Virus record (IMG/VR): IMGVR_UViG_3300028745_000006 | Strand: one strand, 5' to 3' | Source: an uncultured virus (IMG/VR IMGVR_UViG_3300028745_000006) | Taxonomy: Duplodnaviria > Heunggongvirae > Uroviricota > Caudoviricetes | Length of the DNA: 64,000 nt | In this document: in pieces, positions 29,570 through 61,785 of the stretch | How the letters are laid out: every line of letters starts with the position of its first letter | Numbering within the stretch: the stretch's first letter is position 1 | Translations under genes and position numbers: made by a program | Notes under the pieces: generated by a model | The model's database searches: none | What the model saw: only the letters and a program-made list of their open reading frames with translations | Told to the model about the DNA's origin: nothing

Positions 29570-30235
29570 ATGAACGACTTTCAGACCACGGGCCCGATGC
29601 TCCTCCAGGTTCCCGCGCTCGACGTTCGCACCCGCAACGCGGTGATCGCTCACACGACGGCCGGGTGCTTCGACCCCACGATGACGGAGAAGAAGGCTCT
29701 CCTGGCGGGGCGTGCGGTCGCGCGCCTGGCCATCGGCGCGAAGCGCCTCGGGCCTCGGCAGGCGGAGGCGTGTGACACGCTGGTCGCCCAGGTGCTCCGT
29801 GCTCGCGGAAACGCGGCTCGCTACATGGCGGCCCCCGGATACGCGCCGTCCCTCCCGGCGCAGCAGGAGTCGCTCAGCTATGCGCCGGCGCAGGTCATGC
29901 CCGGCTACGCGCCGGCGCAGGTCATGTCGCAGGCTGCATCGGGCCTCAGCCCTCGTCAGGAGGGGATCCTCGTCCGGATCGAGCAGATCCTCACCATGAT
30001 CCTGGCGCTCCTCATGCGGCGGGCGCCCGGCGTGTCAGTCGACGCGACATCGCTCTCGAGCCAGGCGAGTCACGGAGCGCTGGGGGGTGTCAGCTCGGCC
30101 TACCAGCTCCCGTCGGCTTCGAACGGTCTGGTTTCGTGGTCGCCCTCCGCGGCAACGGCCAACGACTACGCCCCCGCGCCTTCCGCGGCCCCGCAGCTCG
30201 CGAGCGGTTCGCGCTACGCCATGGTGCGCACGTGA
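29570..30235 (+). CDS. Hypothetical protein with YAPAQVM duplication
   Basis: GGAGGA RBS; 27-nt tandem duplication near 29878-29930. Confidence 0.65.
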   Translation: MNDFQTTGPMLLQVPALDVRTRNAVIAHTTAGCFDPTMTEKKALLAGRAVARLAIGAKRLGPRQAEACDTLVAQVLRARGNAARYMAAPGYAPSLPAQQESLSYAPAQVMPGYAPAQVMSQAASGLSPRQEGILVRIEQILTMILALLMRRAPGVSVDATSLSSQASHGALGGVSSAYQLPSASNGLVSWSPSAATANDYAPAPSAAPQLASGSRYAMVRT

Positions 30236-30412
30236 TCCCGGCGGCAACCAAGACGGCCGCGGTGGAGCTCGACGAGCGCAGCCTTCGCGTCCTCGATACG
30301 GCCGCGGTCGCGCTCAAGGCGTGGATGCTCTCAGGAAAGCTTCCGGACGTGTCGTGGATGAGCGAGCAGGACTGGGCGTTTGCGGAAAAGTTCTTCGAAG
30401 GATCGAAAGACG

Positions 30413-31552
30413 ATGACAACTGAAGATTGTGCGGTCGTCGATGCCGCTGACTACTCGCGCGACAGTGCGCCATCCGAGGTGCAGAGCGTGTGCGGCGCGT
30501 GCGGGGGCCTCGGGAAGCTCCGGGTCATGGACGACGACGGCAAGCGCCGCGCTTCCGACGGCTGGCGGAAGTGCCTCGACTGCAACGGAACGGGACAGGT
30601 ACTCGACGGCGCCGCGACGGATGACGGCGCAGTCGGCGCGGCCGAGGGCGCAAAATCTCTCTCCAGCGAACGCAGTGAGCCCGGGGTCCAGGGCTCAGGC
30701 CCTGGCGCGGGGGTCGGGGGCGCGCAGCCCCCGAGCGGTCTCGAGCTCGTCCGCCTGGCGGTCGAGGACGGCTGCCTCGAGAACCAGGCAGCGCTGGACA
30801 TGGTGCCCAGGACGACGTGGATCGCCACGGTGACCCCGGATCGTAGGAGCCCCGGCGGCCTTACCCGCCGCTTCTGGAACAAGGGGATGCGCGGCTGGTA
30901 CGAGCGCCCTGGCGTGGTCGTGCCGGGTGACGTTCTCGAGATGGCCGGAGATCTCAGGAACCCGCGGAAAAAATTCGCTGGCCGCGATCGTGTGTACTGG
31001 TTTGTGACGAGTGTCTCCGCGGCATGCCTTGAGGTCGTGTCGCTTGGAACGACCCCGCCTGGGCGCAGGCGGATTGAACGCGTTCGCGACGAGGTTGCGC
31101 GCGCGTACGCCAAGGATGTCTCGGACGTCGTAGGCGCAGTGGTAGTGCACGAGGGGCGAGTTCTTTTGACGCAGCGCCCCGCCGGCAAGACGTTCGCGTT
31201 CGCCTGGGAGTTTCCCGGCGGGAAGGTCGAGCCTGAAGAGGAGCCGCGCGAAGCGCTCCGGCGTGAGCTTGGAGAAGAGATCGAGTGCGCTGACGCCGAG
31301 GTTGAGGAGCTCCCGATCTGGTCGGGGCACGTCCACTCGGCCGGCGTGACGGTGTCGTTCTACCTGGCGACGCTTCGTGGCGTGCCCGTGCCGAAGGAGG
31401 GCCAAGGCATCGGTTGGTTCGCGCCCGAGGAGCTCGAGAGGCAGACCCTCACGCCGGGCAACCAAGTCGCCTTGCCCGCCGTGCTCGGGTACCTGACCGC
31501 GCGCTGCTTGCCGGTCGTCCGCAGCAGCTTGATCGATCTCGATATTCCTTAG
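30413..31552 (+). CDS. Multidomain protein: CxxCxGxG zinc finger, repeat-derived linker, C-terminal Nudix hydrolase
   Basis: CGACGGLG/CLDCNGTG; Nudix box WEFPGGKVEPEEEPREALRRELGEE. Confidence 0.85.
   Translation: MTTEDCAVVDAADYSRDSAPSEVQSVCGACGGLGKLRVMDDDGKRRASDGWRKCLDCNGTGQVLDGAATDDGAVGAAEGAKSLSSERSEPGVQGSGPGAGVGGAQPPSGLELVRLAVEDGCLENQAALDMVPRTTWIATVTPDRRSPGGLTRRFWNKGMRGWYERPGVVVPGDVLEMAGDLRNPRKKFAGRDRVYWFVTSVSAACLEVVSLGTTPPGRRRIERVRDEVARAYAKDVSDVVGAVVVHEGRVLLTQRPAGKTFAFAWEFPGGKVEPEEEPREALRRELGEEIECADAEVEELPIWSGHVHSAGVTVSFYLATLRGVPVPKEGQGIGWFAPEELERQTLTPGNQVALPAVLGYLTARCLPVVRSSLIDLDIP
30666..30733 (-). repeat. 70-bp repeat in-frame in the Nudix fusion
   Basis: Read as SERSEPGVQGSGPGAGVGGAQPP. 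Confidence 0.9.
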
Positions 31553-31615
31553 GGCCCCCTAAGGAGAATGTTGACATTTTCTAGCAAAGTGAGAAAGTGA
31601 CCCGAACGGGCGCAC

Positions 31616-31657
31616 TCAAGAATAGTTTCTTGACAGTTCAGCTCCCGTCCTTACGGT
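31616..31657 (+). promoter_or_regulatory. Palindrome plus promoter upstream of the ParB-like gene
   Basis: TCAAGA ATAGTT TCTTGA overlapping TTGACA-N16-TACGGT. Confidence 0.65.
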
Positions 31658-31680
31658 AGAGCGAGGAGCAAGAGAAAAAG

Positions 31681-32736
31681 ATGTCGTACAGCGATCTCAA
31701 GAAAGACGGAATGAGTGCGGGGCCAGGGTCCAACGCGGTGGACCCCCTCCGGCTGTTCGTGATCGGTCTCGACGGCGTGGGGGTCACGGAGGAGGATCGG
31801 ATCGACTGGCTGAAGGACATCTTCCCGAAGCTCTCGGCCCGGATCGATGCGCTCCGCGACGTCCGCGCCTGCGAGGAGATCGAGGAGACCAAGATTGTCT
31901 GCTTCCGTCCCGAGGAGGCGCGCCCGGTCATCTACCTGAACGCTCACTGCTCGTTCCCCGAGGGGGAGGGGTACGGGCAGTGGTCCGGGCTGAAGTTCCT
32001 TCCGGTCGTCACGGGCCGGCAGACGACCAAGGTCTACCGCGCGCTGGGGGCGAGGCGCGAAGCGAAGGGCGCGCCGGCGCTCAAGATGCTGGCGCGCAGC
32101 CGTCTCTTCGAGACCGATCTCGAGCTCGAGGAGGCGGTCGCCATCGAGAACTCCAGGATCCTCGACTGGAAGCCCTCGGCGCGCGCCTGGACGGCTCATC
32201 GTCTGATGGAGAAGGGCTCCCCCGAGGAGCACGTGATGGCCTGGGTCGGCATCAAGAGCCGGGGCGGGCTGAAGAAGCTGATCTCTATCTTGAAGTGCAG
32301 TCCGACCGTGCTGAAGGCGCTCGACGACCGAAGGATCGTCCAGCGGGTCGCGCTCGACGTCGCCAAGAAGGGCGACCACGACAAGCAGGACGTGGAGCTG
32401 GAGAAGCGCTTCGCCGCCGCCAAGGGGCAGAAGGGGCACACTCGCTCCCGGACGATGAACGGCGTGACTCCCGGCACCCCCTCGCCGGTGCGGCCCGGTC
32501 GCATCCGGGAGATGGTCAAGCTCCTGACGGCTCGCGCCGCCACGCCGAACGCCCCCAAGGATCCGCAGCGCGACGACGCGCTCATTCTCCTGCGCGCGAT
32601 CGCAGGCGAGGCCAGCGCGGTCGCCTTGCTCCCGGCCAGCGTTCGCGAGGTTCTCGCGATCGTCCAGGCCCCCAAGAAGCCCGCTCTGCCGCCCGTCGCG
32701 CCGTCTCTCCCGGGACACGTCGCCGACGCCGAGTGA
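31681..32736 (+). CDS. ParB-like protein
   Basis: VVTGRQT (degenerate GxxR box), AIENSR, HTH-like region, ILKCSPTVLKALDDRRI. Confidence 0.6.
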   Translation: MSYSDLKKDGMSAGPGSNAVDPLRLFVIGLDGVGVTEEDRIDWLKDIFPKLSARIDALRDVRACEEIEETKIVCFRPEEARPVIYLNAHCSFPEGEGYGQWSGLKFLPVVTGRQTTKVYRALGARREAKGAPALKMLARSRLFETDLELEEAVAIENSRILDWKPSARAWTAHRLMEKGSPEEHVMAWVGIKSRGGLKKLISILKCSPTVLKALDDRRIVQRVALDVAKKGDHDKQDVELEKRFAAAKGQKGHTRSRTMNGVTPGTPSPVRPGRIREMVKLLTARAATPNAPKDPQRDDALILLRAIAGEASAVALLPASVREVLAIVQAPKKPALPPVAPSLPGHVADAE

Positions 32737-32745
32737 AGATCGCGC

Positions 32746-32809
32746 AGGGGCTCTGCCCCTGCACCCCGCCAGGGCCTGGGCCCTGGACCCTGTAGCTCAC
32801 GATGTTCGC
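32746..32809 (+). repeat. 70-bp repeat, intergenic
   Basis: AGGGGCTCTGCCCCT..CCAGGGCC-TG-GGCCCTGG..CTCACGATGTTCGC. Confidence 0.9.
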
Positions 32810-33153
32810 ATCGGAGGAGTTCACCATGACGAAGATCGATGTGCACACGAAGGTCAAGACCAAGGTCTATGCGGGGAAGCTCCGCGCGCGACTCGCGGAG
32901 CTGAAGAAGAGGCGCCCGGCGGAGCTCGAGAAGTACAGGAAGGACATCGCGCTGTGGAAGAAGGCGGGTAATGGCTGTCCTAGGACACGACCTAGGACAA
33001 TCCCCCTCGGATCAGCCGGAGGCGCGGCCCCGTGAATTGTGAGGTTTTCGACAACTCGGGGCCCGCCTCCGGGGCAGCCTGCGGCCGGGAACCCACGAAG
33101 ATTCAGTCGCTCTCTCTAGACTTTCTCGGCCTGGCTGAAGTAGCGTAGGTCGC

Positions 33154-33426
33154 ATGTCCAAGCTCAACGCCGATCTGATCGCTCGCGCCAATCTCGCTCT
33201 CGAAGCCTCCGGCTTCGACGGAAGCATCGACGAGAACACGACCGAGACCGATGTCTCGATCCTGATGGCCCTGGCGGCCGACGGGTACGCCGGCGACAAC
33301 GAGATCGAGGCGCAGGCCGTCGACATGATGACCGAGGTCTGGCGTGTGATGCGCGGGATCCACCAGGCAAGCGACACTCTCCCCGGCCCCATCCCGCCGC
33401 CGCCGCCGCCCCACACCGAGAGCTGA
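33154..33426 (+). CDS. Acidic hypothetical protein
   Basis: 90 aa, GC3-rich codons. Confidence 0.6.
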   Translation: MSKLNADLIARANLALEASGFDGSIDENTTETDVSILMALAADGYAGDNEIEAQAVDMMTEVWRVMRGIHQASDTLPGPIPPPPPPHTES

Positions 33427-33447
33427 CCGCCACGCACGAGATCGTTC

Positions 33448-33900
33448 GTGGCGCGGTCTTCGACCTGGTGCAGCTTGCGCAGGTTCGGCCCTGCGCATCG
33501 CTGCGCATTCGTGATTCGGAGCCGTGGCTACTGCACGTGGTGTCGGTGCGTGCTCACCAAGGACACGTTCCAGGTCGATCACGTTGTGCCGCGCCGAGAT
33601 GGGGGCAAGCACGCCGACGACAACCTGGTCGCGTCATGCCCCGACTGCAACATCGTTCGGCCTGAAGGTGTCCCGTTTCCGGCCGAGCAGCTCGCCGAAC
33701 CGCTCGACCTGGGCGCCGGGCAGCAGCTCGCCCTCATCTGGTACAACTGGATGTTCGCTCGCTTGCGCGCCAAGACGGTCAAGAATCGCGAGCGGCGCCA
33801 GTGCCTTGCCAAAGAAAACCGAGATGCTTGCGCCGCTGGCCTTGGTGGAAACGCGTTTCCGTTTCGCGTCGTCGAAGGCTCCTCCTCGTGTGCAGCCTGA
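33448..33900 (+). CDS. HNH endonuclease
   Basis: CTWC..DHVVPRRDGG..NLVASCPDCN. Confidence 0.85.
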   Translation: MARSSTWCSLRRFGPAHRCAFVIRSRGYCTWCRCVLTKDTFQVDHVVPRRDGGKHADDNLVASCPDCNIVRPEGVPFPAEQLAEPLDLGAGQQLALIWYNWMFARLRAKTVKNRERRQCLAKENRDACAAGLGGNAFPFRVVEGSSSCAA

Positions 33901-33940
33901 GCCATTCACCTCTCACCTCTCACCTCTTTGAGGAAAAGCC

Positions 33941-34519
33941 ATGAGCTCTCGCGCCCATACGTGTCCGCGCTGCAATGAGGCATGGAATTGCTACGGATGC
34001 GAGAGCGCCGAGATCGCGAAGCTGTGCGGCTCGTGCGCTATCGAGTCGACCCGATCGCAGGCTTTACCGCAGATGGACCTGACCGCATGGGCTCTTGTTC
34101 TTATCTGCTGTTTCGTCAATCTCGTCTCGTCAGCGACTCGGCGCGCGCGCCGCAAGAAGAGCGCCGTACTGGAGCCCTATCCGCGCGTCATGATCACCTA
34201 CCGATCTACGAGCTCGTTGCCGCGCATCGCGCCGCGTACGCGATGGCTCCGACTCTTCTGGGGATGGCTTCGTGGCGTACCGCAACGGTGGCGCGCCCGC
34301 ACTCCGGTGTGGATTTCCACCGATGGTGGCGCTGGTTGGATGCGGCCCGACGGTCGCCCGATTCCGCGAAGCTTCTACGGTCCACCGTATGGCCCGAACC
34401 ACGATCCGTTCGCCGGAAGCGGAGACAGCGGCGCTGGCCGCTCGCCTCTTTCCGGTGTCACGGTTGGCGGCAGGCGCCGAGAGAAGTCCACGATCACCGA
34501 GCCGGGCCAGGATCCGTGA
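33941..34519 (+). CDS. Hypothetical protein (Cys cluster plus TM segment)
   Basis: GAGGA RBS; CPRC..CYGC..CGSC. Confidence 0.5.
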   Translation: MSSRAHTCPRCNEAWNCYGCESAEIAKLCGSCAIESTRSQALPQMDLTAWALVLICCFVNLVSSATRRARRKKSAVLEPYPRVMITYRSTSSLPRIAPRTRWLRLFWGWLRGVPQRWRARTPVWISTDGGAGWMRPDGRPIPRSFYGPPYGPNHDPFAGSGDSGAGRSPLSGVTVGGRRREKSTITEPGQDP

Positions 34520-35220
34520 ACGCGTCGCACTTCGAGCTCTGCGCGCTCCTGAGCGCTGCCTTCGCGGGCCCGCTTCTCGCCCGGCGCGCGCCGCTGTGCG
34601 AGCCGCATGCGCGCGTGGCGACGGCGTGTCTCGCGCTCTACCTGGTGCGGGCGCTGCGGCCGCATGACGTGTCGCTAGGCGTCTTTCTGTTCGTCGTGTG
34701 GCCGGGGCTCGCCGGCGCGCTCGTGGTGCACGTCCTGCCCATGGATCCGCCAGCTTCGCCGGAGGCTCCCCTCGCGAACGCAGTGAGCTGCGGGGCCGAG
34801 GGCCCAGGCCCTGGCCCAGGGTTTGGGGGCGGGCAGCCCCCGAGCTTCTTGAGCTCTCGGGTTATGTGCGTGCTCGCAAGCTTCATGGTCGCGGCAACGG
34901 CCCTTGCGACGGAGGGGCATCGCCTGTGCGTGGTGTGGCCGTGGCCGCTGTTTACGGCGCAGGCGGCGTCTGTCGTGCTTGCGGTTGAGGCGTGGGGGAG
35001 ACGAGCGAGGAGCGGGATCTCGAGATCAGAGCGGTGGGCGCAGGTGGGGGCGGTGGTGTTGCCTGCGGGGACGCTTGCCGACCTGGCGACGGTCTGGGCA
35101 GGGGCTCCGGATACCGTTCGGGCGGTACTTGGAGGGGTGACGTGGCTCCTGTTTGGTGCGACCATGGCGGCATGTTCGAGGACTGCGCAGACCCCACCGG
35201 CGGCACGGGCGGGTGGATAG
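34516..35220 (+). CDS. Multi-pass membrane protein with an in-frame repeat in a loop
   Basis: GTGA coupling; several hydrophobic segments interrupted by ANAVSCGAEGPGPGPGFGGGQPP. Confidence 0.55.
   Translation: MNASHFELCALLSAAFAGPLLARRAPLCEPHARVATACLALYLVRALRPHDVSLGVFLFVVWPGLAGALVVHVLPMDPPASPEAPLANAVSCGAEGPGPGPGFGGGQPPSFLSSRVMCVLASFMVAATALATEGHRLCVVWPWPLFTAQAASVVLAVEAWGRRARSGISRSERWAQVGAVVLPAGTLADLATVWAGAPDTVRAVLGGVTWLLFGATMAACSRTAQTPPAARAGG
34773..34843 (-). repeat. 70-bp repeat in-frame in the membrane protein
   Basis: GCGAACGCAGTGAGC..AGGGCC-CA-GGCCCT..GGGGGCGGGCAGCCCCC. Confidence 0.85.
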
Positions 35221-35358
35221 GCGTGGGCTTCGTCATTTTGGGGGCCGCGCTGGGGGCTGCCTTCTGCGGAGCCGGGCTCGCAGTCGGAATCCGGTGTGCG
35301 GTGTCGGGGATCCGCCTCCGGCTCGACGCGATCCGTGACGCGGCGGCGACGCGGCTCT

Positions 35359-35844
35359 CTACTGCTGACTCGCGCGAATCCCAGCCCCCGTCCGAGACCG
35401 GGTAGGTCGAGCCTCCTCGGGGTCGACCTGGCTGGTGGCCGCGACGATGGTCGCCGTCTCTCGCATCGCATCGGTCGCCTCCGAGAGGCGGCGGTCGGAG
35501 ATCAAGGTGCGGGTGACCTCGCCGTCTTCGCCCAGCGATTTCACCACGGTGTGGGTGCCGGACTCGACCTGCTGCCTCACCCCGTCGACCTTGCTGTGCA
35601 GCCCGTCGATTTTCACACTGAACTCGGTCCGAACGGTCTCGATCTTGGCGCGCGTCTCGACGTGCTCGGCGACCTGCTTTTTCGCCTGGTCGGACCAGTC
35701 GATCCGGATCCCCTCGACGGCGATGGCGCCTCGCGTGGCCGCTGCCGTGAGTCGGATCATCCCGACCGCGACGACCGCGACGAGGACGAAGAAAGCTCCA
35801 GCGGCTGTTGGGTTCCTGAAAAACGCGTCGAGGAGAGTGATCAT
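35359..35844 (-). CDS. Single-TM coiled-coil protein
   Basis: N-terminal TM followed by a heptad-like region. Confidence 0.55.
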   Translation of the reverse strand: MITLLDAFFRNPTAAGAFFVLVAVVAVGMIRLTAAATRGAIAVEGIRIDWSDQAKKQVAEHVETRAKIETVRTEFSVKIDGLHSKVDGVRQQVESGTHTVVKSLGEDGEVTRTLISDRRLSEATDAMRETATIVAATSQVDPEEARPTRSRTGAGIRASQQ

Positions 35845-36064
35845 GAGCCTAAAGATACCGCCAAGACCGTCCGCTCCACAAGATCACTCGGTGCGCAGGC
35901 ACACCCAGACCTCTCGCGAGAGACGCGCCCCACGATCTTGGTTGACGCGATAGCATTGGGTGAGATATTCGCGCGAGACTAGCAGCAGCGCGTCGCCACG
36001 ACGAGCTACCCGATCCTTCGGCGGCGGCAATTGCAATTCCTGCTGCCGTGCCTAAGATTATCTC

Positions 36065-36454
36065 ATGAAGAATTTGATGGTCCTGGTAGCTCTGTCGATT
36101 CTTGGAATCATGGCAGGGTGCAGAGGCGGAGGCACCACGATCCTCTGTGACGCCGGCGCGATTCGCATGGGGGCGGACGTTCCAAGACTCGAGGTGAGCG
36201 ACGAAGGCGCATGCTGCTCGCGCTGCCTGGACGTCACGGGGGAGTGCGTCGACTGCAAGGAGGAGGACGCGGGGGCAGGAGTCGGCGCCAGCACCGACGC
36301 TGGCGAAGACGCGGGATCGGCCGCGGACGCGGGCGAGGACGCAGGAGACGAAGAGGACGCTGGAAGTGGCTTCGCGACGTGCGGCGATCCCGATCCTTGC
36401 AATCCGACGCGATGCAGGGTGGTCGGTGAGCCTGCGTGCGACGCCGGCCCCTGA
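36065..36454 (+). CDS. Cys-rich lipoprotein with DAG repeats
   Basis: Lipobox MAGC; repeated DAGEDAG. Confidence 0.7.
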   Translation: MKNLMVLVALSILGIMAGCRGGGTTILCDAGAIRMGADVPRLEVSDEGACCSRCLDVTGECVDCKEEDAGAGVGASTDAGEDAGSAADAGEDAGDEEDAGSGFATCGDPDPCNPTRCRVVGEPACDAGP

Positions 36455-37351
36455 CTTCACGGCCACCTCGAGCGCGGCCTTTGCGAAAATCGAGGCGTAG
36501 AGCTCGACGGCGTACTCGAGCGAAGTCCCTTCCTGAATGAGCTCGTGGCGATCTGGGTCACAGCCAGCCTCGCCATGGGTGAGGTAGAGCCGCTGGGTGG
36601 GCCACGCTCCGCCGGGTCCCGGGCCATTCACGCCTTCGCGGAACTCGTCCCGGAGGACGAGGTAGCGCGAGAAGATGGTGCGAGCAACGACCTCGTCGGG
36701 CGTGGGAGGCAGTGAAGGCTTGGTCGACAAGGCAAGGTGGCACGGGAGAGGAAGCTCGCCGACGAGAGCATCCGCCGTGGCGCGGCTTTGCCCACAGAAT
36801 GCCCGCTGCCCACAAAGGGCTCGGTCGTCCACGCCTCGGTTGCCCGAGACACCGGGCCATATCCCGGTGCTTTTGGCGGAAACCCGCCCGGCGGGGTGGC
36901 TTGTTCGTCCAGAGCCCCGAACATCTATAGCGCTTCGCGCTGGGTTTGCTAGCTGCTGCCCACAAGAAAGTTGTTTTCCTGTGTTCTATGGGCAAGGTCC
37001 CGTGGCGCCTTTCTTGAACGGCGGCCACCCGTTCGACCATGCCAGAGTGGTGAAGAACAGGGTGAGCCACGAGGCGGCAACGACGACGCGGATTCCGATC
37101 GAGTCGACAGGCCCCGGCGAGACGTGATGGCCAGCGAGGAGGCCGATCGCCAGGGCGTTGGCGGCGCAGCATGCAATCTGCGTGAAGAGGGCTCGGTTGA
37201 AGGCGGGTCTACGCATGGACAGACAGTTACTGCAAGTTCTCGTGAATGTCTATTCGTAGCCCTTGACTCACCTCTCGCATGAGCCTAGGTTCCACGTGCC
37301 CGTCACGAAGCGATTGCGACGCGTCGGGCAGCATGGCTTCGTTTACAGAAC

Positions 37352-37702
37352 GGGGGCGTCACGGCTTCGACGTGGCTCTTTGAGAATCCTCTGCATGTGG
37401 GCGGCGCTCGATCCGACTCAACCAATCGAGCCGTACCAACCGCGAACGACAACGCACTCCTCGATTTCGACCTGACGGGTTGACCGAGTGTCCGGCCGGA
37501 AGATCGTCCTTGTACCGGGGCAGGGCATAATTACCAGGGCTGGACCGATACGCGTGCTACGCGGCGCATCGGTCGAGATGAACAGCGAAGATAGGTCACA
37601 GCCGAATCTGTGAGCTCAGCCGCCGGGGATACGGCGGATAAGCATGTGAACGAAGGGGTTTCAAGAAAGTTGCGGACCCGGGTTCGACTCCCGGCGCCTC
37701 CA
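37352..37702 (+). ncRNA. ssrA: tmRNA
   Basis: 5' GGGGGCGTCACGGCTTCGAC; 3' GACCCGGGTTCGACTCCCGGCGCCTCCA with G3-U70 alanyl stem; tag ORF starts ANDN at 37442; about 350 nt; CCA not encoded (CGA follows). Confidence 0.93.
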
Positions 37703-37810
37703 CGATTCGTTGGCACAAATAGAACGGCACGGAGTCCCGATAGCTTCGGGGAACGCCATGCAAGACCCTTCGGGTAGCCTCTAGAGACGGGAGGTCCAAG
37801 GGGTACGGCG

Positions 37811-37848
37811 AACGGCCCGGTCGCAGAGATGCGACCGGGCCGTTTTGC
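37811..37848. terminator. Strong hairpin terminator
   Basis: AACGGCCCGGTCGCA-GAGA-TGCGACCGGGCCGTT followed by TT. Confidence 0.8.
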
Positions 37849-37894
37849 TGTCACGGTCGACAGCGCCGCCGCGGGCGACGGAACCGGCTGAGGT

Positions 37895-38317
37895 TCACCG
37901 ACCGGAAGCCGCCGCCGGCGCCGGCACTGACCGCACGATCGCGATGACGCCGCCGAAGGAGTCGAGCCGGTACCGGATCCCGCCTTGGGAAAACGATCCG
38001 TCGACGTTGGCGGTCGCCCCCTGCACGGTCTTGAACGCGAGCTCGGTCAGCCGCATCCCCTGCGCGACTCCTGGTGCGCCCAGCTCCCAGGCGCCGCTTC
38101 CACCGATCACCAGCCGGCACGGAGCCTTCTGCGCAGAGTTGGCCGACGTCGCGCCGATCAGCCCGCCGCGCCACCAGATCTTCCCCTTCATCGCGTCGAG
38201 GAACGTCTGCACGACCGGGATGATCGGCTCCGGCGCCTTCGCCGCAAGGGCTGGCGCAGGGGTGACGATCGTCTTGGGCTTCGGTTTGCGAGGGCGAGGC
38301 ATCTGGAGCGGCATCAT
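37895..38317 (-). CDS. Hypothetical protein
   Basis: 140-aa ORF converging on the terminator. Confidence 0.5.
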   Translation of the reverse strand: MMPLQMPRPRKPKPKTIVTPAPALAAKAPEPIIPVVQTFLDAMKGKIWWRGGLIGATSANSAQKAPCRLVIGGSGAWELGAPGVAQGMRLTELAFKTVQGATANVDGSFSQGGIRYRLDSFGGVIAIVRSVPAPAAASGR

Positions 38318-38674
38318 GCTCGCGATCCTACGCCCTCTCAGGCGGGCGGGCCAGCGATCCGGCTACGGCAGACCAGCATCGCTTGCGAGGCCGTCGTCGA
38401 TGCCCGCAAGAAGGCATGGATGTCGTTCACCCATGCCTTCTGCCCAGGCTTCGGCTTTGTAGCTGACAGTGACTTCTTCGTCGTCATACGGTGATCTTGT
38501 TGGCGTGATGAGAAAACCAGGCAACGCGCACGGAGATCTTCGGGCCGTACTTGATCTGGAGCTCGGGGTGGTGGTTGTAGTGCTGGGCCAGTAAGATTCT
38601 TCTTTCGTGTCGCACTCGTTAACATCCGTAGAGTCTACCCGATCCTCGCGATTTCGTGATAGGAGCATCTTGTC

Positions 38675-39052
38675 ATGGCAGCAAAATCAAGCAGGTCTTT
38701 CTTGGGCAAGTGCAGGGGCTGCAAGCGAACGGTCCAGGTCTCTTGCAACGCCGCGGACACGGTGGAGGCCAGGCGCACAAGCGTCGGCAAGCTCATCTCC
38801 GCCAAGCGCATCGCGTGGCAGATCGTCGGAGGTGCGCTCGACGGTACCCGGACGCCCCTTGCGGCCGCGTGGAACGGCAAGTGGCAGCTCAGCCTTGTCT
38901 GCCCTCACTGCGCGGTCCCGATGATGGTCCAGGCCGTCGCCGGAACGTACTCCGCGAATCATCCGTGCGGCGCCCGCTGCCTCGCCTCGAAGGGGCCGAC
39001 GTGCGAGTGCTCCTGCGGCGGCAAGAACCACGGCGCCTTGCACGCGGTGTGA
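38675..39052 (+). CDS. Cys-rich Zn-binding hypothetical protein
   Basis: AGGAG RBS; CRGC, CPHC, CGARC..CECSCGGKNHG. Confidence 0.7.
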   Translation: MAAKSSRSFLGKCRGCKRTVQVSCNAADTVEARRTSVGKLISAKRIAWQIVGGALDGTRTPLAAAWNGKWQLSLVCPHCAVPMMVQAVAGTYSANHPCGARCLASKGPTCECSCGGKNHGALHAV

Positions 39053-39386
39053 GATGGGAATGCACCTGGGCCCCCTTTCGGTCGACGACGCCCACTTCTG
39101 CGACTGCTCTTCGTGCCGGGCCTGCGTTGCTGCGAACGAGCTCCGCCCCGCGATGGACTACCGAAACCCGCCCGTGCTCGCAGGGATCCCGGCGCCGGTC
39201 GCCGTTACGGGCAGGCTCGATCGTATCAAGAAAGTCTTTCGGACTATCTTTTTTTAGCATCACGAGCGAAGTTCGGATCGAAGATCGAAGCGCGAAGAGC
39301 CTCATGCGCGTCGCGCGTGGCGCATGCGACTTCAAGGAGCCGAGGACACGATGGACGAGATGGAAGAGGTCGAGAGAAGGGTTCAG

Positions 39387-39641
39387 ATGACGACGGACGA
39401 GACCCCCGAGTGGCCCACGGATCTGGCCGTAGCCGTCTGCTTGCGCCAGATCTCCGCCGACCTGGAGAACGGCACCGCAGAGGTCTTCTGCGCCAACTGC
39501 GCCGCGGTGGAGACCCTGTCGGACGACACCAGCCCCTTCTGGCCCGGGAGCGAGACCGGCTTCCGCGCATGGCTCAACCACTTCGGCGGCCTGTCGTCCG
39601 AGGAGATCGACGCGGCCGTTCTCCCGCTCAAAAACACATGA
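39387..39641 (+). CDS. Hypothetical protein
   Basis: 84 aa, coding-like codon usage. Confidence 0.5.
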   Translation: MTTDETPEWPTDLAVAVCLRQISADLENGTAEVFCANCAAVETLSDDTSPFWPGSETGFRAWLNHFGGLSSEEIDAAVLPLKNT

Positions 39642-39658
39642 GCCGAAGTCGTGAGCAA

Positions 39659-40120
39659 ATGAAAAATCGCGTGAGAGATCTCGCTGCCGTTCTTCTGGTG
39701 TTTCTTTCCGCGTGCAGCAACCCGCTGGTGGACATCGGGGACCAGGAGTGCGCCGACTCTCCCAGCTCTTGCGTGGCGCCGGCCCCTTCGTGCGGAGGGA
39801 TGGTGGTGCCCGCGTGTCCGGCTGGATGCCAGCCAAAGTGCTATTCCCCGACGCACGAGATGGTGCTCAAGGGAGCGCTGGCGGAGTGGGAGTGCGACCC
39901 CACCGACCCCCAGGCGACCGGCTACGGCATCTGCGTGATCGATGCTGGCCCGAGTTCGTGTTTCGCGAACGAAGGCGCGTGCGGCCAGGACGCGTACTGC
40001 TGCTCGGGCCTGTGCTCCGAGCAGGGTGTATGCGAGGCATGCCGTGCGCCGCTCGAGGGGTGCACGACGGACCTGGAGTGCTGCGCCGGCGTGTGCAGCC
40101 TCAACGCCTGCGGAGGATAA
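39659..40120 (+). CDS. Cys-rich lipoprotein
   Basis: Lipobox LSAC; repeated C..CC.G.C modules. Confidence 0.7.
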   Translation: MKNRVRDLAAVLLVFLSACSNPLVDIGDQECADSPSSCVAPAPSCGGMVVPACPAGCQPKCYSPTHEMVLKGALAEWECDPTDPQATGYGICVIDAGPSSCFANEGACGQDAYCCSGLCSEQGVCEACRAPLEGCTTDLECCAGVCSLNACGG

Positions 40121-40230
40121 ATGAGCGACAAGAAAGACGAGAAACTGCGCGAATGGTGGGAGCTCGCCAAGCTCTCGCCATCGAAGAAAGTGCGTCGTCG
40201 GGCTCTCTCTCTTTCGCAGAAGAGGTAACG

Positions 40231-40323
40231 ATGCCGAGATCGGCCAATACAGAAGCCAAGGTCCGGCTCAACCTGGAACTGCCCGAGCGAGTCCGCGAAG
40301 AGCGTGAACTGATCATCAAGTAG
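40231..40323 (+). pseudogene. Truncated RHH-like regulator fragment
   Basis: GAGGT RBS; KVRLNLELPERVRE stops after 30 aa, just upstream of a half repeat. Confidence 0.4.
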
Positions 40324-40366
40324 AGGTTCGACGACGGCCCACCGTCGGGGATCCCGGGGTGGGACA

Positions 40367-40397
40367 CTGGTGGGGGTGCCGGGGGCGAAGCCCCTGG
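40367..40397 (-). repeat. Half copy of the 70-bp repeat
   Basis: CTGGTGGGGGTGCCGGGGGCGAAGCCCCTGG. Confidence 0.75.
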
Positions 40398-40443
40398 TAC
40401 GATCCCGGTGTCAGATCTCGTGCGGCTCACGCGTCGTAGGTCC

Positions 40444-41025
40444 ATGACCCCTACCGAACGTGTTCACCTCGCCTTCGCCACCACCCGCCAGATCCTTCCT
40501 GGCCACCTCGAGCGCTGCTTGACGCAAAGGGCCGCGGGGCCGCGCGCGGCCGGCTCGACCTACATCCTGTCCACCGAGGCGCTCGAGCGCGCGCTCCTTG
40601 GCGCGACCTGGGAGACGTACGAGCACCCGGCGATCGAGGAGGACTGCGCGGGCTTCACCGCGCCCATCGCGGGCCGCCTGGGGGTGGTTGCGCTGGCGAG
40701 CCTTCCGCCGTGGGAGCTCGTCACGCTCGACGATCCCAAGGGCGAGGGGGAGACCGACGTGCTCCTTCGCCGGCGCAACATCCCCGGCCGCGACCGCGTC
40801 GACTTCACCGTCATCCTCCTGGGCCCCGTCGACGATACCGGCGCCTCTCCGCACGGCGCCGAGCCTCGCCTTCGCCTCCACGAGGTAGTCTACACCTTCC
40901 ACCCCGGCGCGCCCATCGTCCCCGCCCGCGTCTGCCCGACCGTCTGCGGCCCCGACGGACGCACGATCCGCGTCGACCAGGCTCTCCGCTTCGGCTTCAC
41001 CCACGCCAAGATCGTCGCCGGGTAG
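40444..41025 (+). CDS. Hypothetical protein
   Basis: 193 aa, VYTFHPG motif. Confidence 0.65.
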   Translation: MTPTERVHLAFATTRQILPGHLERCLTQRAAGPRAAGSTYILSTEALERALLGATWETYEHPAIEEDCAGFTAPIAGRLGVVALASLPPWELVTLDDPKGEGETDVLLRRRNIPGRDRVDFTVILLGPVDDTGASPHGAEPRLRLHEVVYTFHPGAPIVPARVCPTVCGPDGRTIRVDQALRFGFTHAKIVAG

Positions 41026-41032
41026 CGGACCG

Positions 41033-41106
41033 CTCGGGGGCTGCGCGCCCCCGACCCCCGCGCCAGGGCCTACCGGCCCTGGACCCTGCGGCTCACGATG
41101 TTCGCG
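41033..41106 (+). repeat. 70-bp repeat, intergenic
   Basis: GGGGGCTGCGCGCCCCC..CCAGGGCC-TACC-GGCCCTGG..CTCACGATGTTCGC. Confidence 0.9.
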
Positions 41107-41136
41107 AAGAGGGCCTTCGGCGAGCTGAAATGGAGG

Positions 41137-41169
41137 AAAGGGCCGGACCCTTTCGAGTCCGGCCCCTTC
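41137..41169. terminator. Hairpin between convergent units
   Basis: GGGCCGGAC-CCTTTCGA-GTCCGGCCC. Confidence 0.6.
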
Positions 41170-41462
41170 AGGCACATTCACCCGCTTGCCCGGGTGCCCC
41201 TTCGACTTTCACTTCGACGTGCTTGGGGCGCGCAACTGGCAGAGGAAGAATCTACAATCTCTGACGTCGACCGGCAAGCTTTTACATGCTGTCCTCAGTC
41301 GAAATCGCCTGGCTCGCCGCGAGTTACGTGGACCTTGTGGTCCTTGTCGTCGAGGAGCGAGCCGAGGGCGCCCATCATCATTTTCTCCCGGGTTCCCTGG
41401 TCGGCCTCCATGAACTTCCGGCGCTTCTCCGGCGGCCATGTGGTTGAGGGCCCCGTGGTTCT

Positions 41463-41984
41463 TCATTCGCTCGCTCCTCTTGCCGCAACGATGGCCACCT
41501 GCTCGTTGTGCCGCGTGGCGTCCCTTGGCGAGATGGCACGGATCGCGACATGGACGGTTTCGAGCTCGCGAAGAGCGACCGCGAATCTGGCTTCAGCTTC
41601 AGCGAGTGCTCGGAGGCTTGGCTCGCCCTTCCAGCCACCTTTCGGGCTCTGGGCGCGAGCGAGCGCCTCACAAGCGACCACCGCGGCCGCGCCGGCGTCT
41701 GCGCGTGCCACGAGAAGACCTCCGAGCTCGTGTCCTGCGTGTCCTGCCATGGGTACGCCGCCGCCGGCCTTGATCACGGCGACGATGCGCCTTGCCTCTG
41801 CTGCGCAGTGTTGCACCGTCTCGTGCCCATGGGCGTCGCAGCCGTGTTCCTTGAGCAGGTGGTCTGCGGCGTTGGCGAGCTGAGCGAGCACGTCCCAGAG
41901 CGGCCACGGGTTGGCCGCGTTCAGCACCTCGACGAGGCGTGCTTCCGACGCCTCCGCGCGTGACTTCCAGTCGGGCACGTTCAT
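41463..41984 (-). CDS. Hypothetical protein
   Basis: GAGGAG RBS. Confidence 0.55.
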   Translation of the reverse strand: MNVPDWKSRAEASEARLVEVLNAANPWPLWDVLAQLANAADHLLKEHGCDAHGHETVQHCAAEARRIVAVIKAGGGVPMAGHAGHELGGLLVARADAGAAAVVACEALARAQSPKGGWKGEPSLRALAEAEARFAVALRELETVHVAIRAISPRDATRHNEQVAIVAARGASE

Positions 41985-41998
41985 GTTGGCGAGTCTCC

Positions 41999-42304
41999 TC
42001 AGCGTGCGTGATGGAGACAATAGGCCATCACCAAGACGGCGATCATGGGCAGAACCCCACCCAACCACCACCAGCAAGCTCGTGTCCATTCGGTGCCGGC
42101 GGGGTCGGCCATGCCGCGTCGGGTGACGCGCACCAGCGCGACAATCGTCGCGATCGCGAGTAGCGATGACGCGCTGCCGCGCAGCTCCTCGATCGGCTCG
42201 TGCTCTTTGATGACGAGGATCGCCTCCGCGCAAAAGGCCACGAACGTGAGGGCCAGGCAGAGGACATCCGCGCCTACGATGACGCGGAACGGTTTGATTT
42301 TCAT
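41999..42304 (-). CDS. Small 3-TM membrane protein
   Basis: Three hydrophobic segments, GGAGGAG RBS, ATGA coupling. Confidence 0.6.
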   Translation of the reverse strand: MKIKPFRVIVGADVLCLALTFVAFCAEAILVIKEHEPIEELRGSASSLLAIATIVALVRVTRRGMADPAGTEWTRACWWWLGGVLPMIAVLVMAYCLHHAR

Positions 42305-43353
42305 GACTCCTCCGTGCTGGAGACGACGCTCGGCGCCACGTTGATCTCGCCGGTGACGATGATCTCTGAAGGCTCAGCAATCCAGCCAGTGAGCTGGCAG
42401 CCATGCGAGCACCCGGTCCCGTCAAAGTCGATACCTTGCCAGCGACCCTTGTGATCCGGGCACATGCGCGTGCGCAGCGCTTCGCCTTGGTAGAGAAGCC
42501 GCAGAAGAAGATTGGACTTGCTGATGCTAAAGAACGTGCGCTCGGCGGCATCCGCCTCAGCCTTGAAGCTCCCGAGTTCCTGAATCGCGTGATCGCGTGG
42601 CGTCCGCTCGGTGTCGTGGGTACTCTGCGCGGTCGCCGTTTCAATGCGCGATCGGGCGTAAACGCCGAGCTCTTTGTCGATGCCAGGCCACAGCGCATAG
42701 CGCGCTCGATGGGCGCCCCGTCGCGCGCGAGCCGAGTCTGCGACGGCCGGCGTCAGCGGCGCACCACCGGGCCGATGGCCTCGTAGCCTGGAGCCAGCGA
42801 TCGACATCGGGTCATCCGAGCCTTGCCACAGGTATGTCGCGGTGTTCGCACGAAGGGCGCGGATCCAGTCGATCCACCACCCCTCAACCGTGCCTGGTCG
42901 AACGCTGTCGAGATCGTCGAAAAAGCTGCGAACGATGATTGATGCGGGGTGTGAATCCGCATACACTACCGCGGCTCTGGTCCAGATCGTCGCGTGGCTT
43001 GAGTGTTGCTTCAGCGAAGCGACAACGGCGTCGCGTGCGTTGTCGTAGCGTGGCGCGTGACTGTCGAAGCCGTCGACGTCTCGCGTCGACTGGCCTGGCC
43101 AGTACCACTGCCCCGTGTGCGCGCGCGCAGGAAGCCCGCGCACGAGCTCGAAGTCGATGCCACCGATGGAGTCGGATTCGCGCTGGCGGTAGAACGTGAG
43201 GCTTGGCCACTTGAAGCTCTTGCCGAGAAGGCACGCGAGGAGGAAGTCCAGCGGGTCACGCACGGGGACGTACGTCGTGCTGTCCAACTGACCCCTGATC
43301 ACGACGCGCTTTGGGAGGCTATTCAAAATCTTATGTGCCACGAACCGCTCCAT
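42301..43353 (-). CDS. Hypothetical protein with C-terminal Cys/His cluster
   Basis: 350 aa; CPDHKG..CSHGC. Confidence 0.55.
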   Translation of the reverse strand: MERFVAHKILNSLPKRVVIRGQLDSTTYVPVRDPLDFLLACLLGKSFKWPSLTFYRQRESDSIGGIDFELVRGLPARAHTGQWYWPGQSTRDVDGFDSHAPRYDNARDAVVASLKQHSSHATIWTRAAVVYADSHPASIIVRSFFDDLDSVRPGTVEGWWIDWIRALRANTATYLWQGSDDPMSIAGSRLRGHRPGGAPLTPAVADSARARRGAHRARYALWPGIDKELGVYARSRIETATAQSTHDTERTPRDHAIQELGSFKAEADAAERTFFSISKSNLLLRLLYQGEALRTRMCPDHKGRWQGIDFDGTGCSHGCQLTGWIAEPSEIIVTGEINVAPSVVSSTEES

Positions 43354-44160
43354 TTCATGCCTGCTAGGCCATGATCGCTACCGTAACACAGAACACAGAG
43401 CTGTTACTGTCCACACGCCGGACAGATCACAGGCTCACGATCGCGGCCCTGCGGGTCGCCTCGTTGTTCGTCGGGGCCCACGTGAGCGGGCGCCCGTCCT
43501 CGGCGGCGTGGGTCACGAGGGCGACCTCGACGGGGATGTCGCCGAAGCGCGGACCGGCGCCGGCGCTGACGCGGTAGCGCGCGCCGTTGACATGGGTGAG
43601 CCCGGCGGCGTCCCGAAGCGAGACCACGGGGGCGGCGGCGTCGATAGTCTTGGGGCGGCTCACCCGTCCATCCCGTTGACCGCCTCGTCCTCGGCGATGG
43701 CGGCGGCGTCCTCGTTGTTCATGGTCTGGGATCTCCTGTCGGCGAAGCCCCCAGGGCCGGGCGGCCGAGGGGTCGGGATGGGAGCGGCGGGCGGCGTCAG
43801 CGAGGTATGAACACCAGATCCCTCGACGGGACGTGGGGCTCCACGACGACGCGCTTGCCGGTGCCGTTGCAGTGGATGCACGGCTGCCACCCGTGGCCCC
43901 ACCCGACGAAGATGTGCCCGACGACGTGGTTGACGGCGCCATTGCTCTGCTTGCAGTCGGGGCACTCCACGGCGTTGACGGAGCCCCCGGGGATGGGGAC
44001 GAACAGCGAACAAGAGGGGACGTGCTCGCGCGATGCCCAGCCGTTGCAGTGGGGATAGCCTACGCACTTGGGGTCGGTCGTGTTCATGTTCATGGTGGGC
44101 TGCTTTCTCCCGGGTTCGTCGCCCCGGTGAGAAACATCATGAGACCTGAATCGCACGCCG

Positions 44161-44178
44161 TCAAGATTTGTTTCTTGA
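44161..44178. promoter_or_regulatory. TCAAGA-N6-TCTTGA palindrome at a TTGACG-N17-CATGAT promoter (minus strand)
   Basis: TCAAGA TTTGTT TCTTGA. Confidence 0.65.
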
Positions 44179-44222
44179 TTTCTTGGAGTGTCCTAGGACA
44201 GCCGCACGCCGTACTCGTTCCC

Positions 44223-44290
44223 CGCGAACATCGTGAGCCGCGGGGTCCAGGGCCCAGGCCCTGGCGGGGGTGTCGGGGGCGGAGCCCCTG
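44223..44290 (-). repeat. 70-bp repeat directly after the dnaE stop
   Basis: Full consensus copy ending 6 nt from the stop codon. Confidence 0.95.
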
Positions 44291-44296
44291 ACGCTT

Positions 44297-47566
<3,270 letters not shown>

Positions 47567-47598
47567 GGCGAAGGCTCCTGTAGAAGTCCAGAGAGCGT

Positions 47599-47667
47599 CA
47601 GGGGCTTCGCCCCCGACACCCCCACCAGGGCCAAAGGGCCCTGGACCCTACGGCTCACGATGTTCGC
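47599..47667 (+). repeat. 70-bp repeat directly upstream of dnaE
   Basis: Near reverse complement of the 44223 copy. Confidence 0.95.
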
Positions 47668-47789
47668 AAAGGAGAGGGCCGCCGTCTTATGGGTCTTTTG
47701 CACTTTTCACGTGCGATGGGGCGCCTTCGAAGTGTCTGTGTCATCCATGCGATCGCGATCAGTCTCCACGCTTGCCGCCTTTTTGTGCG

Positions 47790-48701
47790 TTACTGGCCTT
47801 CGATGATTGCATCGAGCGAATAGATGGCTGCTCTATTCGCGTAAGAAATCTCGACAACGCTGCCAGACGTTGTCTTCTGGTCGAAGTCCATATCTTTGTC
47901 CATGACCCTTCTCGCCTGTGCGAGCCATTCCTCCCTGTTGCTGGCCATGCTCCGCCCATAGGCGGAAAAAAAGAGCCGGCGCCCTTCGCACAGTACAGTC
48001 TCGAGCTCGTCAATCGTGAGAAAAACAGCGTTGTCGCGCTCTTCCACATGGTTGTCGACGACGCCGATCGTAACTCCTCCCAAGCTCCCCTGGACAACCA
48101 GGTGGTCTACGCTGTCGTAGCGCGGCCAGATCGTGACCTGCTCGCGGTCGAATCGCTGGAACGTCTCGATGGTTCCGCGCTTCCCTTCGCCGTCGAGAGG
48201 TGGATCGCGCACGATTGCGGGCTCCCGCATGCGGGCAACGTTGGCCTCGAGCGCCAGGACACGTGCCTGGGCCTTTTCCAGGCTAGCTTGATCTCTCGCG
48301 ATGGCGCCGAACAGCCGGTCGAGCGCCGCCTGCGTCGGACGACACGGGGTGACCGGATAGTCGACTCCCCTAGACTCAGCGACGGCGAGCTCTTCGCAGA
48401 GGAGGCAGACGTCATCCAGGCCAGCGCCTTGCGCCCATCGGTGGCGGATCGCGGTAGTCCCGTTCCGTTTTGCCATCTTGGCATCTTCAATCTCGACCAC
48501 TCTACGTGCGGCGATCTGACGTCCGTCCGGCGCGATCTCGAACGTGATGTGGCGACGGCCCCTGCGCCTCTCGATCCCGTATCCATTCCGAAGGATTGCA
48601 TTGACCGTAGGAACGGGACCCGTAGCAACTCCGCGCGGATTCTCGTAAGCCTTTGCCAGGAGATCGGCCTGTGCGCTCGACAGCTTCTCTGATCTCGTCA
48701 T
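47790..48701 (-). CDS. Hypothetical protein
   Basis: About 303 aa from MTRSEK. Confidence 0.55.
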   Translation of the reverse strand: MTRSEKLSSAQADLLAKAYENPRGVATGPVPTVNAILRNGYGIERRRGRRHITFEIAPDGRQIAARRVVEIEDAKMAKRNGTTAIRHRWAQGAGLDDVCLLCEELAVAESRGVDYPVTPCRPTQAALDRLFGAIARDQASLEKAQARVLALEANVARMREPAIVRDPPLDGEGKRGTIETFQRFDREQVTIWPRYDSVDHLVVQGSLGGVTIGVVDNHVEERDNAVFLTIDELETVLCEGRRLFFSAYGRSMASNREEWLAQARRVMDKDMDFDQKTTSGSVVEISYANRAAIYSLDAIIEGQ

Positions 48702-49149
48702 TGAACGACTCAAAAATCCTTGAAGGCGCCCATCGCAGCAGAGAAGCGAGTGGCCATCAGGCGCTCCTCGCGGGTCGCTTCGTCGTGTTCGCTTGCGGCG
48801 TGGAGCGCCCAGGCGGCCAGGGACTTCATCAGCCGCTCGGCCCCGTAGCGTCGCACGGCTTCCCGAAGACCTACCTTGCGCGGCGCGCCGTGCAGCCACG
48901 CCTTCGACCATCCCTCTCGGTCCCCCCCTGCGCTCGACGTAGTCGTAGGTACCGTCCTTCTCCTGCGTCCTGTGCTTCGGGAGCTCGCGCGCCTCTGCGG
49001 CGAGCATCGGCTGCGCCACCCGAAGCGCCTCACGGAGGAGGTTTGCGCCGGCGCGCCTGGAGAGGCGAAGCGCGTGTCCGTGGCGAGCACGGGCCGAAGA
49101 GAGCGACCTCATTGAGGAGGAGATCATGTCGAGCATGGGAGCCAACTTT

Positions 49150-49617: not shown

Positions 49618-49773
49618 CGCTTCTCTGCCTCCTCGCACGCGCCGAAGGCCGGCGCCGCGGTTGCAGCGTCGGCCATGTAGGCGTCATCCGGGGAGGGGGT
49701 GAGCTCGGGTCCTGTCGCTAGGCCCGAGCCTGGGCCGCGGCCTCTCTACCCGCCGCGGCTTGGTCTTGGGCCG

Positions 49774-61734: not shown

Positions 61735-61785
61735 GTAGATCCTTCTGTGGAAAGATGCTTGGGGGCTGCCAGCACCCAACTGGGG

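Follow-up and report, generated by a model that had tools for sequence, protein, structure and literature searches.

The window, by which we mean the whole 64-kb stretch of DNA analyzed here, appears to encode a working tmRNA of Myxococcota type, carried on a large, probably viral element from peat, that would rescue stalled ribosomes without adding the usual disposal signal; we give this reading a probability of roughly 0.55. A tmRNA has two jobs, freeing stalled ribosomes and marking the unfinished protein for destruction, and laboratory mutants separate them. The tag encoded by the window ends in Leu-Thr-Gly (DFDLTG-stop) and not in Ala-Ala, and the typical nonpolar end is absent.

A complete one-piece tmRNA gene

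ARAGORN reported a single tmRNA at 37352-37703 on the plus strand as the sole RNA gene of the 64-kb window. Rfam matched family RF00023 at 37352-37705 (+) over the full model (positions 1-374 of 374), with 101.3 bits against a gathering score of 47 and an E value of 1.9e-38. The two programs concur that the tmRNA is genuine and has an alanine-type tRNA-like domain, as a preliminary description of this DNA had proposed. That description placed the RNA at 37442-37483, an interval that covers the tag frame and its stop and not the entire gene. The features of the gene are as follows.

37352-37705, plus strand: one-piece tmRNA gene (ARAGORN; Rfam RF00023, full length; direct reading)
37352-37358, plus strand: 5′ strand of the acceptor stem, GGGGGCG, pairing with CGCCUCC at 37695-37701 (direct reading)
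37406-37431, plus strand: pseudoknot 1 hairpin, GCUCGAU...AUCGAGC (Rfam alignment; RNAalifold columns 55-60/75-80)
37442-37483, plus strand: tag frame, with resume codon GCG at 37442-37444, 13 codons encoding ANDNALLDFDLTG, and stop codon TGA at 37481-37483 (ARAGORN, Rfam, alignments)
37467-37483, plus strand: helix 5, UCGACC at 37467-37472 with GGUUGA at 37478-37483, loop UGACG (MFE fold; RNAalifold columns 117-120/130-133)
37673-37703, plus strand: T-arm and 3′ acceptor strand, 31 nucleotides shared without change by tmRNA genes of other organisms from these peat samples

By direct reading, all seven pairs of the acceptor stem (GGGGGCG/CGCCUCC) are formed, including the G3.U pair (G3.U70), with the discriminator A next to them. 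A G3.U pair is the mark of alanine acceptors, and both this G.U alanine identity pair (RNAalifold columns 4-358) and the T-arm pairs were kept in all eight aligned sequences. The mature RNA probably ends at the discriminator A, 37702. Positions 37703-37705 read CGA, so that CCA is not encoded in the gene and would have to be added posttranscriptionally by a host enzyme. Upstream of the pseudoknot 1 hairpin, GGGCGG at 37399-37404 can pair with the loop CCGACU with one G.A mismatch; the pseudoknot cross-pairings were read by eye only. The minimum free energy of the single sequence was no better than that of shuffled sequences (z = -0.48), which is as expected because a tmRNA is a pseudoknotted RNA. 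At relaxed thresholds, Rfam found nothing else beside the tmRNA gene except one subthreshold match in the trailer, described below.

In contigs from four further peat runs, the gene is identical letter for letter. Across 5 kb, these contigs showed five substitutions and one insertion, none of them within 37352-37705, which makes an assembly slip in the tag unlikely. The stretch is contained in 24 peat metagenome runs from 24 studies, nine of which could be its source, with no RNA run among them. The contigs of the four runs are near-identical and so have no power on the conservation of the tag. In all four peat runs compared, read depth over 37673-37703 rose to 18-41 against ∼5 for this bin, and the loose ends flanking this peak differed from the window on both sides. 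Tmrna genes of other, more abundant peat organisms share this stretch and encode CCA where the window has CGA.

The tag frame

Direct reading of the frame and ARAGORN bore out the earlier statement that the tag begins with ANDN and finishes with DFDLTG: ARAGORN gave the tag as ANDNALLDFDLTG*, with the coding part at gene positions 91-132. The preliminary description had suggested confirming the resume codon with ARAGORN and Rfam, and GCG indeed aligns with the resume codon of the RF00023 model. The resume G (column G91) and the A at -4 (column A87) did not vary among the seven Myxococcota tmRNAs aligned. Read in the two other frames, the sequence from the resume position gives RTTTHSSIST* and ERQRTPRFRPDGLTECPAGRSSLYRGRA*, neither with an Ala-Ala end. 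The stop codon TGA at 37481-37483 sits in the 3′ strand of helix 5, and an out-of-frame TGA at 37473-37475, in the helix 5 loop, occupies the stop-codon site of the Myxococcota relatives.

The exact tag string was absent from IMG/VR, and a back-translated DFDLTG-stop pattern matched 10 IMG/VR stretches, none of which was a tmRNA. The LTG end is unique among all tmRNAs examined here. No relative with an LTG end was found, and the peat runs represent one near-identical population; the end may be a neutral or a recent lineage-specific change.

Bacterial relatives of the RNA

We compared the whole window RNA by BLAST with genomes grouped by phylum or order, at a cutoff of E <= 1e-11. The numbers of genomes matched were as follows.

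Phylum of the Haliangiales MAG (Myxococcota): 4 of 401 genomes
Order of the best match (includes those four Myxococcota genomes): 17 of 281 genomes
Phylum of the Wenzhouxiangella genome: 0 of 401 genomes
Phylum of the Desulfobulbaceae MAG: 0 of 301 genomes
Phylum of the Phycisphaerales MAG: 0 of 301 genomes
Phylum of the Mobilicoccus genome: 0 of 281 genomes

Long alignments were thus confined to Myxococcota (4/401, against 0/1,284 across the four other phyla), and the best match at the order level had 70% identity over bases 1-352 of the window RNA. By this comparison the RNA is of Myxococcota type among the five phyla compared (Acidobacteriota and many others lay outside the comparison). A Myxococcota host for the element is likely, but not certain, because phage tmRNAs can outlast a host switch (PMC9004378); the same source argues for phage Melnitz that a phage tmRNA may derive from a former host (PMC9004378).

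The chromosomal tmRNAs of Myxococcota (L334-L356) align with the window RNA over its full length and have in common with it the tRNA-like domain, the hairpins of the pseudoknots, and helix 5, in which the stop codon has the same position. Identity between the window and these RNAs is 56 to 65%, compared with 64 to 85% among themselves. Unlike them, the window RNA has no encoded CCA and no chromosome-like surroundings. The tags differ as well, with mostly 10 codons and, in 23 of 23 cases, an LAA end in Myxococcota against 13 codons and LTG in the window. The 23 closest bacterial tags (12/12 and 11/11 in two sets) all end in AA, mostly in the form ANDNA(L/I/Y)ALAA (ANDNALALAA, ANDNAIALAA, ANDNAYALAA). 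The preliminary description had left room for a host tag ending as the window's does; in the probable host lineage it does not. Further bacterial tmRNAs that share the 5′ motif gave tags ending in A in 58 of 58 cases and in AA in 55, which brings the bacterial comparators to 81 of 81 tags ending in A.

Phage-borne tmRNAs with the same tag start

IMG/VR was scanned for the ANDNA-type tag start, which yielded 75 stretches, 8 of them tmRNAs. Their tags were as follows.

L357 and L403: ANDNALVPMQMAA
L365: ANDNAIADVGIAA
L396: ANDNAISHAAKAA
L402: ANDNALAHDRIAA
L392, L406, and L413: ANDNAIPEQFAQAA twice and ANDNAIRAAA once

All eight of these phage-borne tags end in AA, and the window alone ends in LTG, so the comparison with other phage tags proposed in the preliminary description sets the window apart. 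For two of the eight, the carrier is a complete genome with terminal repeats (160 kb in one case and 393 kb in the other). The phage tags are lengthened to 13 to 14 residues in seven of the eight cases, against 10 residues in 17 of the 23 closest bacterial relatives, and the length of 13 residues is common to the window tag and five of the eight. On the contig of the ANDNAIADVGIAA tmRNA (L434, G1916:C1:40001-60000), a tRNA with a UUA anticodon, labeled "tRNA-Stop" by ARAGORN, lies ∼5 kb away; a UUA-anticodon "tRNA-Stop" also adjoins the tmRNA of Bacillus phage G (L320).

Scans with the 3′ 29-mer and the 5′ 21-mer of the window RNA retrieved marine one-piece tmRNAs, two-piece tmRNAs of huge phages, and tmRNAs from genomes of many phyla. 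The 29-mer, from the T-arm and acceptor strand, occurs in 25 IMG/VR contigs. We rejected the tmRNAs found in this way as kin, as their BLAST similarity was restricted to the ends. L103 (tag ANDNAMLAAA) and three other 29-mer contigs were also rejected; three of the contigs had no relative of the window's DnaE, and G009 had only a distant one (30 to 34% identity). L104, L105, and L106 (IMG/VR; 332, 463, and 109 kb) carry two-piece permuted tmRNAs (RF04321, 70 to 93 bits) whose first 21 bases equal those of the window and whose tags are ANAPKAMAAHA, ATAPKALAMAAAA, and ...QLSVAA. ARAGORN assigned odd tags to LR756508 (L319; GRRKPLSW) and to L098 from IMG/VR (...KLSIWGC), in both cases with the coding part starting from about position 150. 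The resume codons of these two look mis-set by ARAGORN; in L098, an alternative frame, GCC AAC GAT near position 90, would yield a long tag.

Two possible histories of the LTG end

The first six codons of the window tag (ANDNAL) are identical to the codons of the bacterial relatives. Set beside the 10-codon bacterial tags, the window shows 31 bases, not 30, ahead of the homologous stop, and the frame then continues for three codons. Set beside L365, whose phage tag has 13 codons, the window can be aligned one codon to one codon with coinciding stops, and the last two codons are GCC GCG in L365 and ACG GGT in the window. A +1 frameshift of a 10-codon bacterial tag fits the first alignment, and an in-frame change within a 13-codon phage-type tag fits the second equally well. 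Identity over this stretch is ∼50% in either alignment, so that neither history is favored. Under both histories, as far as these alignments tell, the Ala-Ala end is lost.

The element that carries the gene

The window has a G+C content of 65%. We called 84 ORFs crudely by third-position G+C and a further 47 over the gaps, for a total of 131. Genes are short and tightly packed, with frequent 4-base overlaps. Only 10 of the 84 ORFs have a Pfam family, and ten ORFs match PHROGs at 1e-5; several small ORFs fall into families that are confined to phages and have no known function. The larger annotated genes are as follows.

5699-16393, minus strand: SNF2 helicase-core protein of 3,563 residues (Pfam SNF2-rel_dom and Helicase_C at residues ∼205-820; phrog_62, "DNA helicase")
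30380-31552, plus strand: NUDIX protein of 390 residues (C-terminal NUDIX; N-terminal 230 residues unexplained)
44297-47566, minus strand: DnaE-type polymerase (Pfam; PHROGs phrog_405, E = 3.7e-284)
58429-61779, minus strand: DinG/Rad3-like helicase of 1,115 residues (Helicase_C_2; Hint matches at residues 66-165 and 457-538)

The other ∼2,700 residues of the SNF2 ORF match nothing. The Hint matches suggest one or two inteins in the DinG/Rad3-like helicase. The remaining Pfam-positive ORFs are a PP2C, an HNH, an HTH protein, a YunG, and two weak matches. A "portal protein" PHROG match of the 390-residue ORF was discarded, being confined to the NUDIX domain. Pfam and PHROGs revealed no family of capsid, portal, terminase, or tail proteins among the 84 ORFs, and a search of 68 unexplained ORFs against PHROGs at a relaxed threshold likewise found no structural family. 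None of the 131 ORFs belongs to the SmpB, Clp, protease, adaptor, integrase, relaxase, partition, or transposase families. The remark in the preliminary description that the window has no smpB holds for the 84 ORFs and for the 47 further ORFs alike.

Of ten window proteins looked up, two had records. One of these, neighboring the tmRNA, is present on 22 contigs, the longest of 154,533 bp, so the element is at least 154 kb. The window tmRNA had no match in the phage collection, and positions 30000-50000 matched the phage and plasmid collections in short DnaE pieces only. Two neighbor proteins had no relatives in IMG/VR, and a 546-residue ORF had just two relatives. DnaE relatives were found at 76 viral loci (best identity, 56%) and 80 metagenome loci (best identity, 65 to 68%, on contigs of up to 421 kb). 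ARAGORN found no tmRNA in the 24 of 76 viral loci scanned, and in the 80 of 80 metagenome loci it found none within 10 kb of the DnaE relative. Among the 84 window ORFs, PP2C is the only one besides DnaE with a match at these 156 loci, which leaves no synteny. An Rfam scan of five complete viral records turned up one unrelated tmRNA of low G+C content. For two large ORFs, the closest clusters in the Atlas consist mostly or wholly of viral members, which we treat as weak leads.

Taken together, the gene content, rich in ORFs that lack known relatives, points to a large, novel element of phage-like character that is likely a phage. We regard it as doubtful that the carrier is instead a megaplasmid, another extrachromosomal element, or a Myxococcota-like island, with the tmRNA as a second, diverged cellular copy. 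Such a carrier would suit the lack of any virion gene in 64 kb and the lack of matches beyond DnaE in the phage, plasmid, and IMG/VR collections; PMC7162821 mentions putative plasmids of large size that carry genes for translation, and PMC4131195 speaks of extra ssrA copies in some bacteria, sometimes on plasmids. Set against this are the scarcity of Pfam families, the missing relaxase, partition, transposase, and integrase families, the strength of the phrog_405 match together with the small ORFs in phage-only families, the tight gene packing, and, as leads only, the viral Atlas clusters.

Conservation of structure outside the tag

From eight sequences including the window, RNAalifold predicted 90 pairs, of which 44 show covariation. 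Despite the 56 to 65% identity to the relatives, 81 of these 90 consensus pairs are retained in the window, 25 of them through double changes; the consensus was built from an alignment containing the window, which biases this count slightly in the window's favor. Three of the nine missed pairs are accounted for by the acceptor stem, which is itself perfect but is displaced by one base in the alignment. Of the 109 columns outside the tag that do not vary among 16 bacterial tmRNAs, the window agrees at 93, and within the first six codons it agrees at 12 of 12. Helix 5 has been rebuilt with different letters (UCGACC/GGUUGA). Free decay is improbable because the pairing and the invariant columns are retained, and by these measures the tmRNA looks to be under selection while its tag end changed.

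This bears on the possibility that the tag frame is decaying, with the RNA kept for another purpose, such as titration of SmpB or blocking of host trans-translation, or with the whole gene disappearing. The 31 bases in place of 30 before the homologous stop are readable as a frameshift, CCA is not encoded, and LTG is unique among everything examined. A possible precedent comes from mycobacteriophage DS6A, for which a molecule consisting of only the tRNA-like domain is described and such a role is proposed, a similar molecule being cited as inhibiting tmRNA (Hudson et al., PMC4131195). However, the window keeps all helices outside the tRNA-like domain, helix 5 and the later pseudoknot hairpins included, and its 25 compensatory pairs are counted among them; a role confined to the tRNA-like domain is disfavored because it would not need these helices. 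The frame also stays open through 13 codons to a stop that lies in helix 5 and aligns with that of L365. We consider a decaying tag unlikely.

Transcription context

The tmRNA lies on the plus strand, alone between two minus-strand ORFs, and is best explained as its own transcription unit. Two candidate signals flank it.

37263-37291, plus strand: possible promoter, TTGACT-17 nt-TAGGTT, ∼60 nt upstream of the mature 5′ end (by eye, weak)
37812-37846, plus strand: terminator-like hairpin with a 14-bp G+C-rich stem, loop GAGA, then TTTT, ∼105 nt past the tmRNA (fold)

A consensus promoter scan found no promoter upstream of the tmRNA, and a simple terminator scan did not list the hairpin at 37812-37846. 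Folding of 37700-37860 gave -78.2 kcal/mol (z = -5.3), with none of 200 shuffles as good. The intervening trailer of ∼105 nt (37706-37811, plus strand) contains several small G+C-rich hairpins, and the sole Rfam match there, below threshold, is with the model for permuted tmRNA (21.9 bits, E = 0.026).

Proposed working and the fate of tagged proteins

We propose that the host alanyl-tRNA synthetase would charge the window tmRNA and that host SmpB and EF-Tu would bring it to ribosomes stalled on broken mRNAs. Translation would resume at GCG 37442 and stop at TGA 37481, whereupon the ribosome would be released and the nascent chain would gain ANDNALLDFDLTG. The tagged products would probably not be passed to a ClpXP-type route that reads the Ala-Ala end, because the Ala-Ala of all bacterial and phage-borne relatives has been lost. 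In Escherichia coli, nonpolar residues at the C terminus of the tag are described as critical for recognition by the protease (PMC2584231), and tags normally end in hydrophobic residues according to PMC4131195. In Helicobacter pylori, changing the last two alanines to aspartates stabilized a reporter only about 2-fold, and the variant was still degraded (PMC2584231). Loss of Ala-Ala is therefore no guarantee that degradation is lost, and the window tag could still be degraded.

A more specific version of this proposal, which we put forward tentatively, is that a large Myxococcota phage remodeled a tmRNA it had captured, producing a natural equivalent of the laboratory variant SsrA-DD, keeping rescue and withholding the ClpXP signal, whether to spare the protease or the products or to block host tagging through competition for SmpB. 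Ribosome turnover would then be maintained during infection, for example when host defenses or phage nucleases cut mRNAs.

Alternatively, the tag may still be a degradation signal by another route, with disposal rerouted to Lon or FtsH acting on the hydrophobic and acidic residues of LLDFDL, to an adaptor reading ANDN, or to a protease encoded by the element. Mycoplasma tags are read by Lon, and the ANDNAL codons are the same as in the bacterial relatives, although these first codons may be conserved for frame selection and not for the peptide. To our knowledge, DFDLTG matches no known degron, and protease, Clp, and adaptor families are absent from the 131 window ORFs. In H. pylori, the last two alanines are portrayed as not central to proteolysis (PMC2584231), which speaks for rerouted disposal. 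On balance, we judge it quite unlikely. It is very improbable that the tag was simply misread, with resumption elsewhere or read-through of the stop and a canonical true tag, even though ARAGORN sets odd frames in other tmRNAs (L098, L355, and LR756508, with the coding part far from position 90 or the tag extended), since GCG falls on the consensus resume codon of the Rfam alignment, every relative retains GCGAACGACAACGC and the A at -4, the alternative frames end in ...SIST and ...RGRA and so do not supply the AA end that the preliminary description had considered, and read-through of the stop would give a long peptide unlike a tag.

If rescue without the usual mark is what this tmRNA provides, a natural, structured tmRNA of this kind would mean that mobile elements exploit the separation of rescue from proteolysis, and it would offer a ready-made nondegron tag for Myxococcota genetics. 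Should LTG prove to be a neutral accident, the window would just add another case to the phage-borne tmRNAs. The comparison also adds a Myxococcota-type lineage to the known phage tmRNAs, and in phage copies of this type the tag is lengthened from 10 to 13-14 residues.

Comparison with known systems

The nearest engineered parallel is SsrA-DD, which, like the window, combines an intact tmRNA with a change in only the last tag residues, so that rescue is expected to remain (PMC2584231). SsrA-DD is a laboratory construct with an Asp-Asp end and a small effect in H. pylori, whereas the window tag is natural and has a Thr-Gly end.

Carriage of a tmRNA by a phage is itself familiar, with 402 of 18,146 phage genomes reported to have one (PMC9004378) and phage tmRNAs listed in PMC4131195 and PMC7162821. 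Mycobacteriophage Bxz1, Bacillus phage G, and the huge phages LR756511 and LR756500 resemble the window in having a complete tmRNA on a large genome with no smpB nearby. Their tags end in hydrophobic residues, ...AAALV in Bxz1, ...ELQVA in phage G, and ...AMAA and ...RMAA in LR756511 and LR756500, in contrast to LTG in the window. These cultured or curated phage tmRNAs belong to other bacterial lineages and often lie in tRNA clusters, whereas the window has no tRNA. Phrase searches on phage tmRNA, with subscription journals outside their coverage, found no paper on degron-less phage tags.

The eight phage-borne ANDNA-type tmRNAs, which lie on large viral contigs, are like the window in their tag start and in lengthening beyond the bacterial 10-mers. 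Over the 12 bases that precede the resume codon, L365 agrees with the window at 11. They differ from it in the AA end, and RNA identity is only 49 to 66%. Their genomes share no DnaE with the window, and the L365 contig has no gene in common with it except for one weak HNH match. Phage tmRNAs were thus already known; what is new here is a Myxococcota-type tmRNA with a tag ending in LTG, an outlier among its phage-borne kin.
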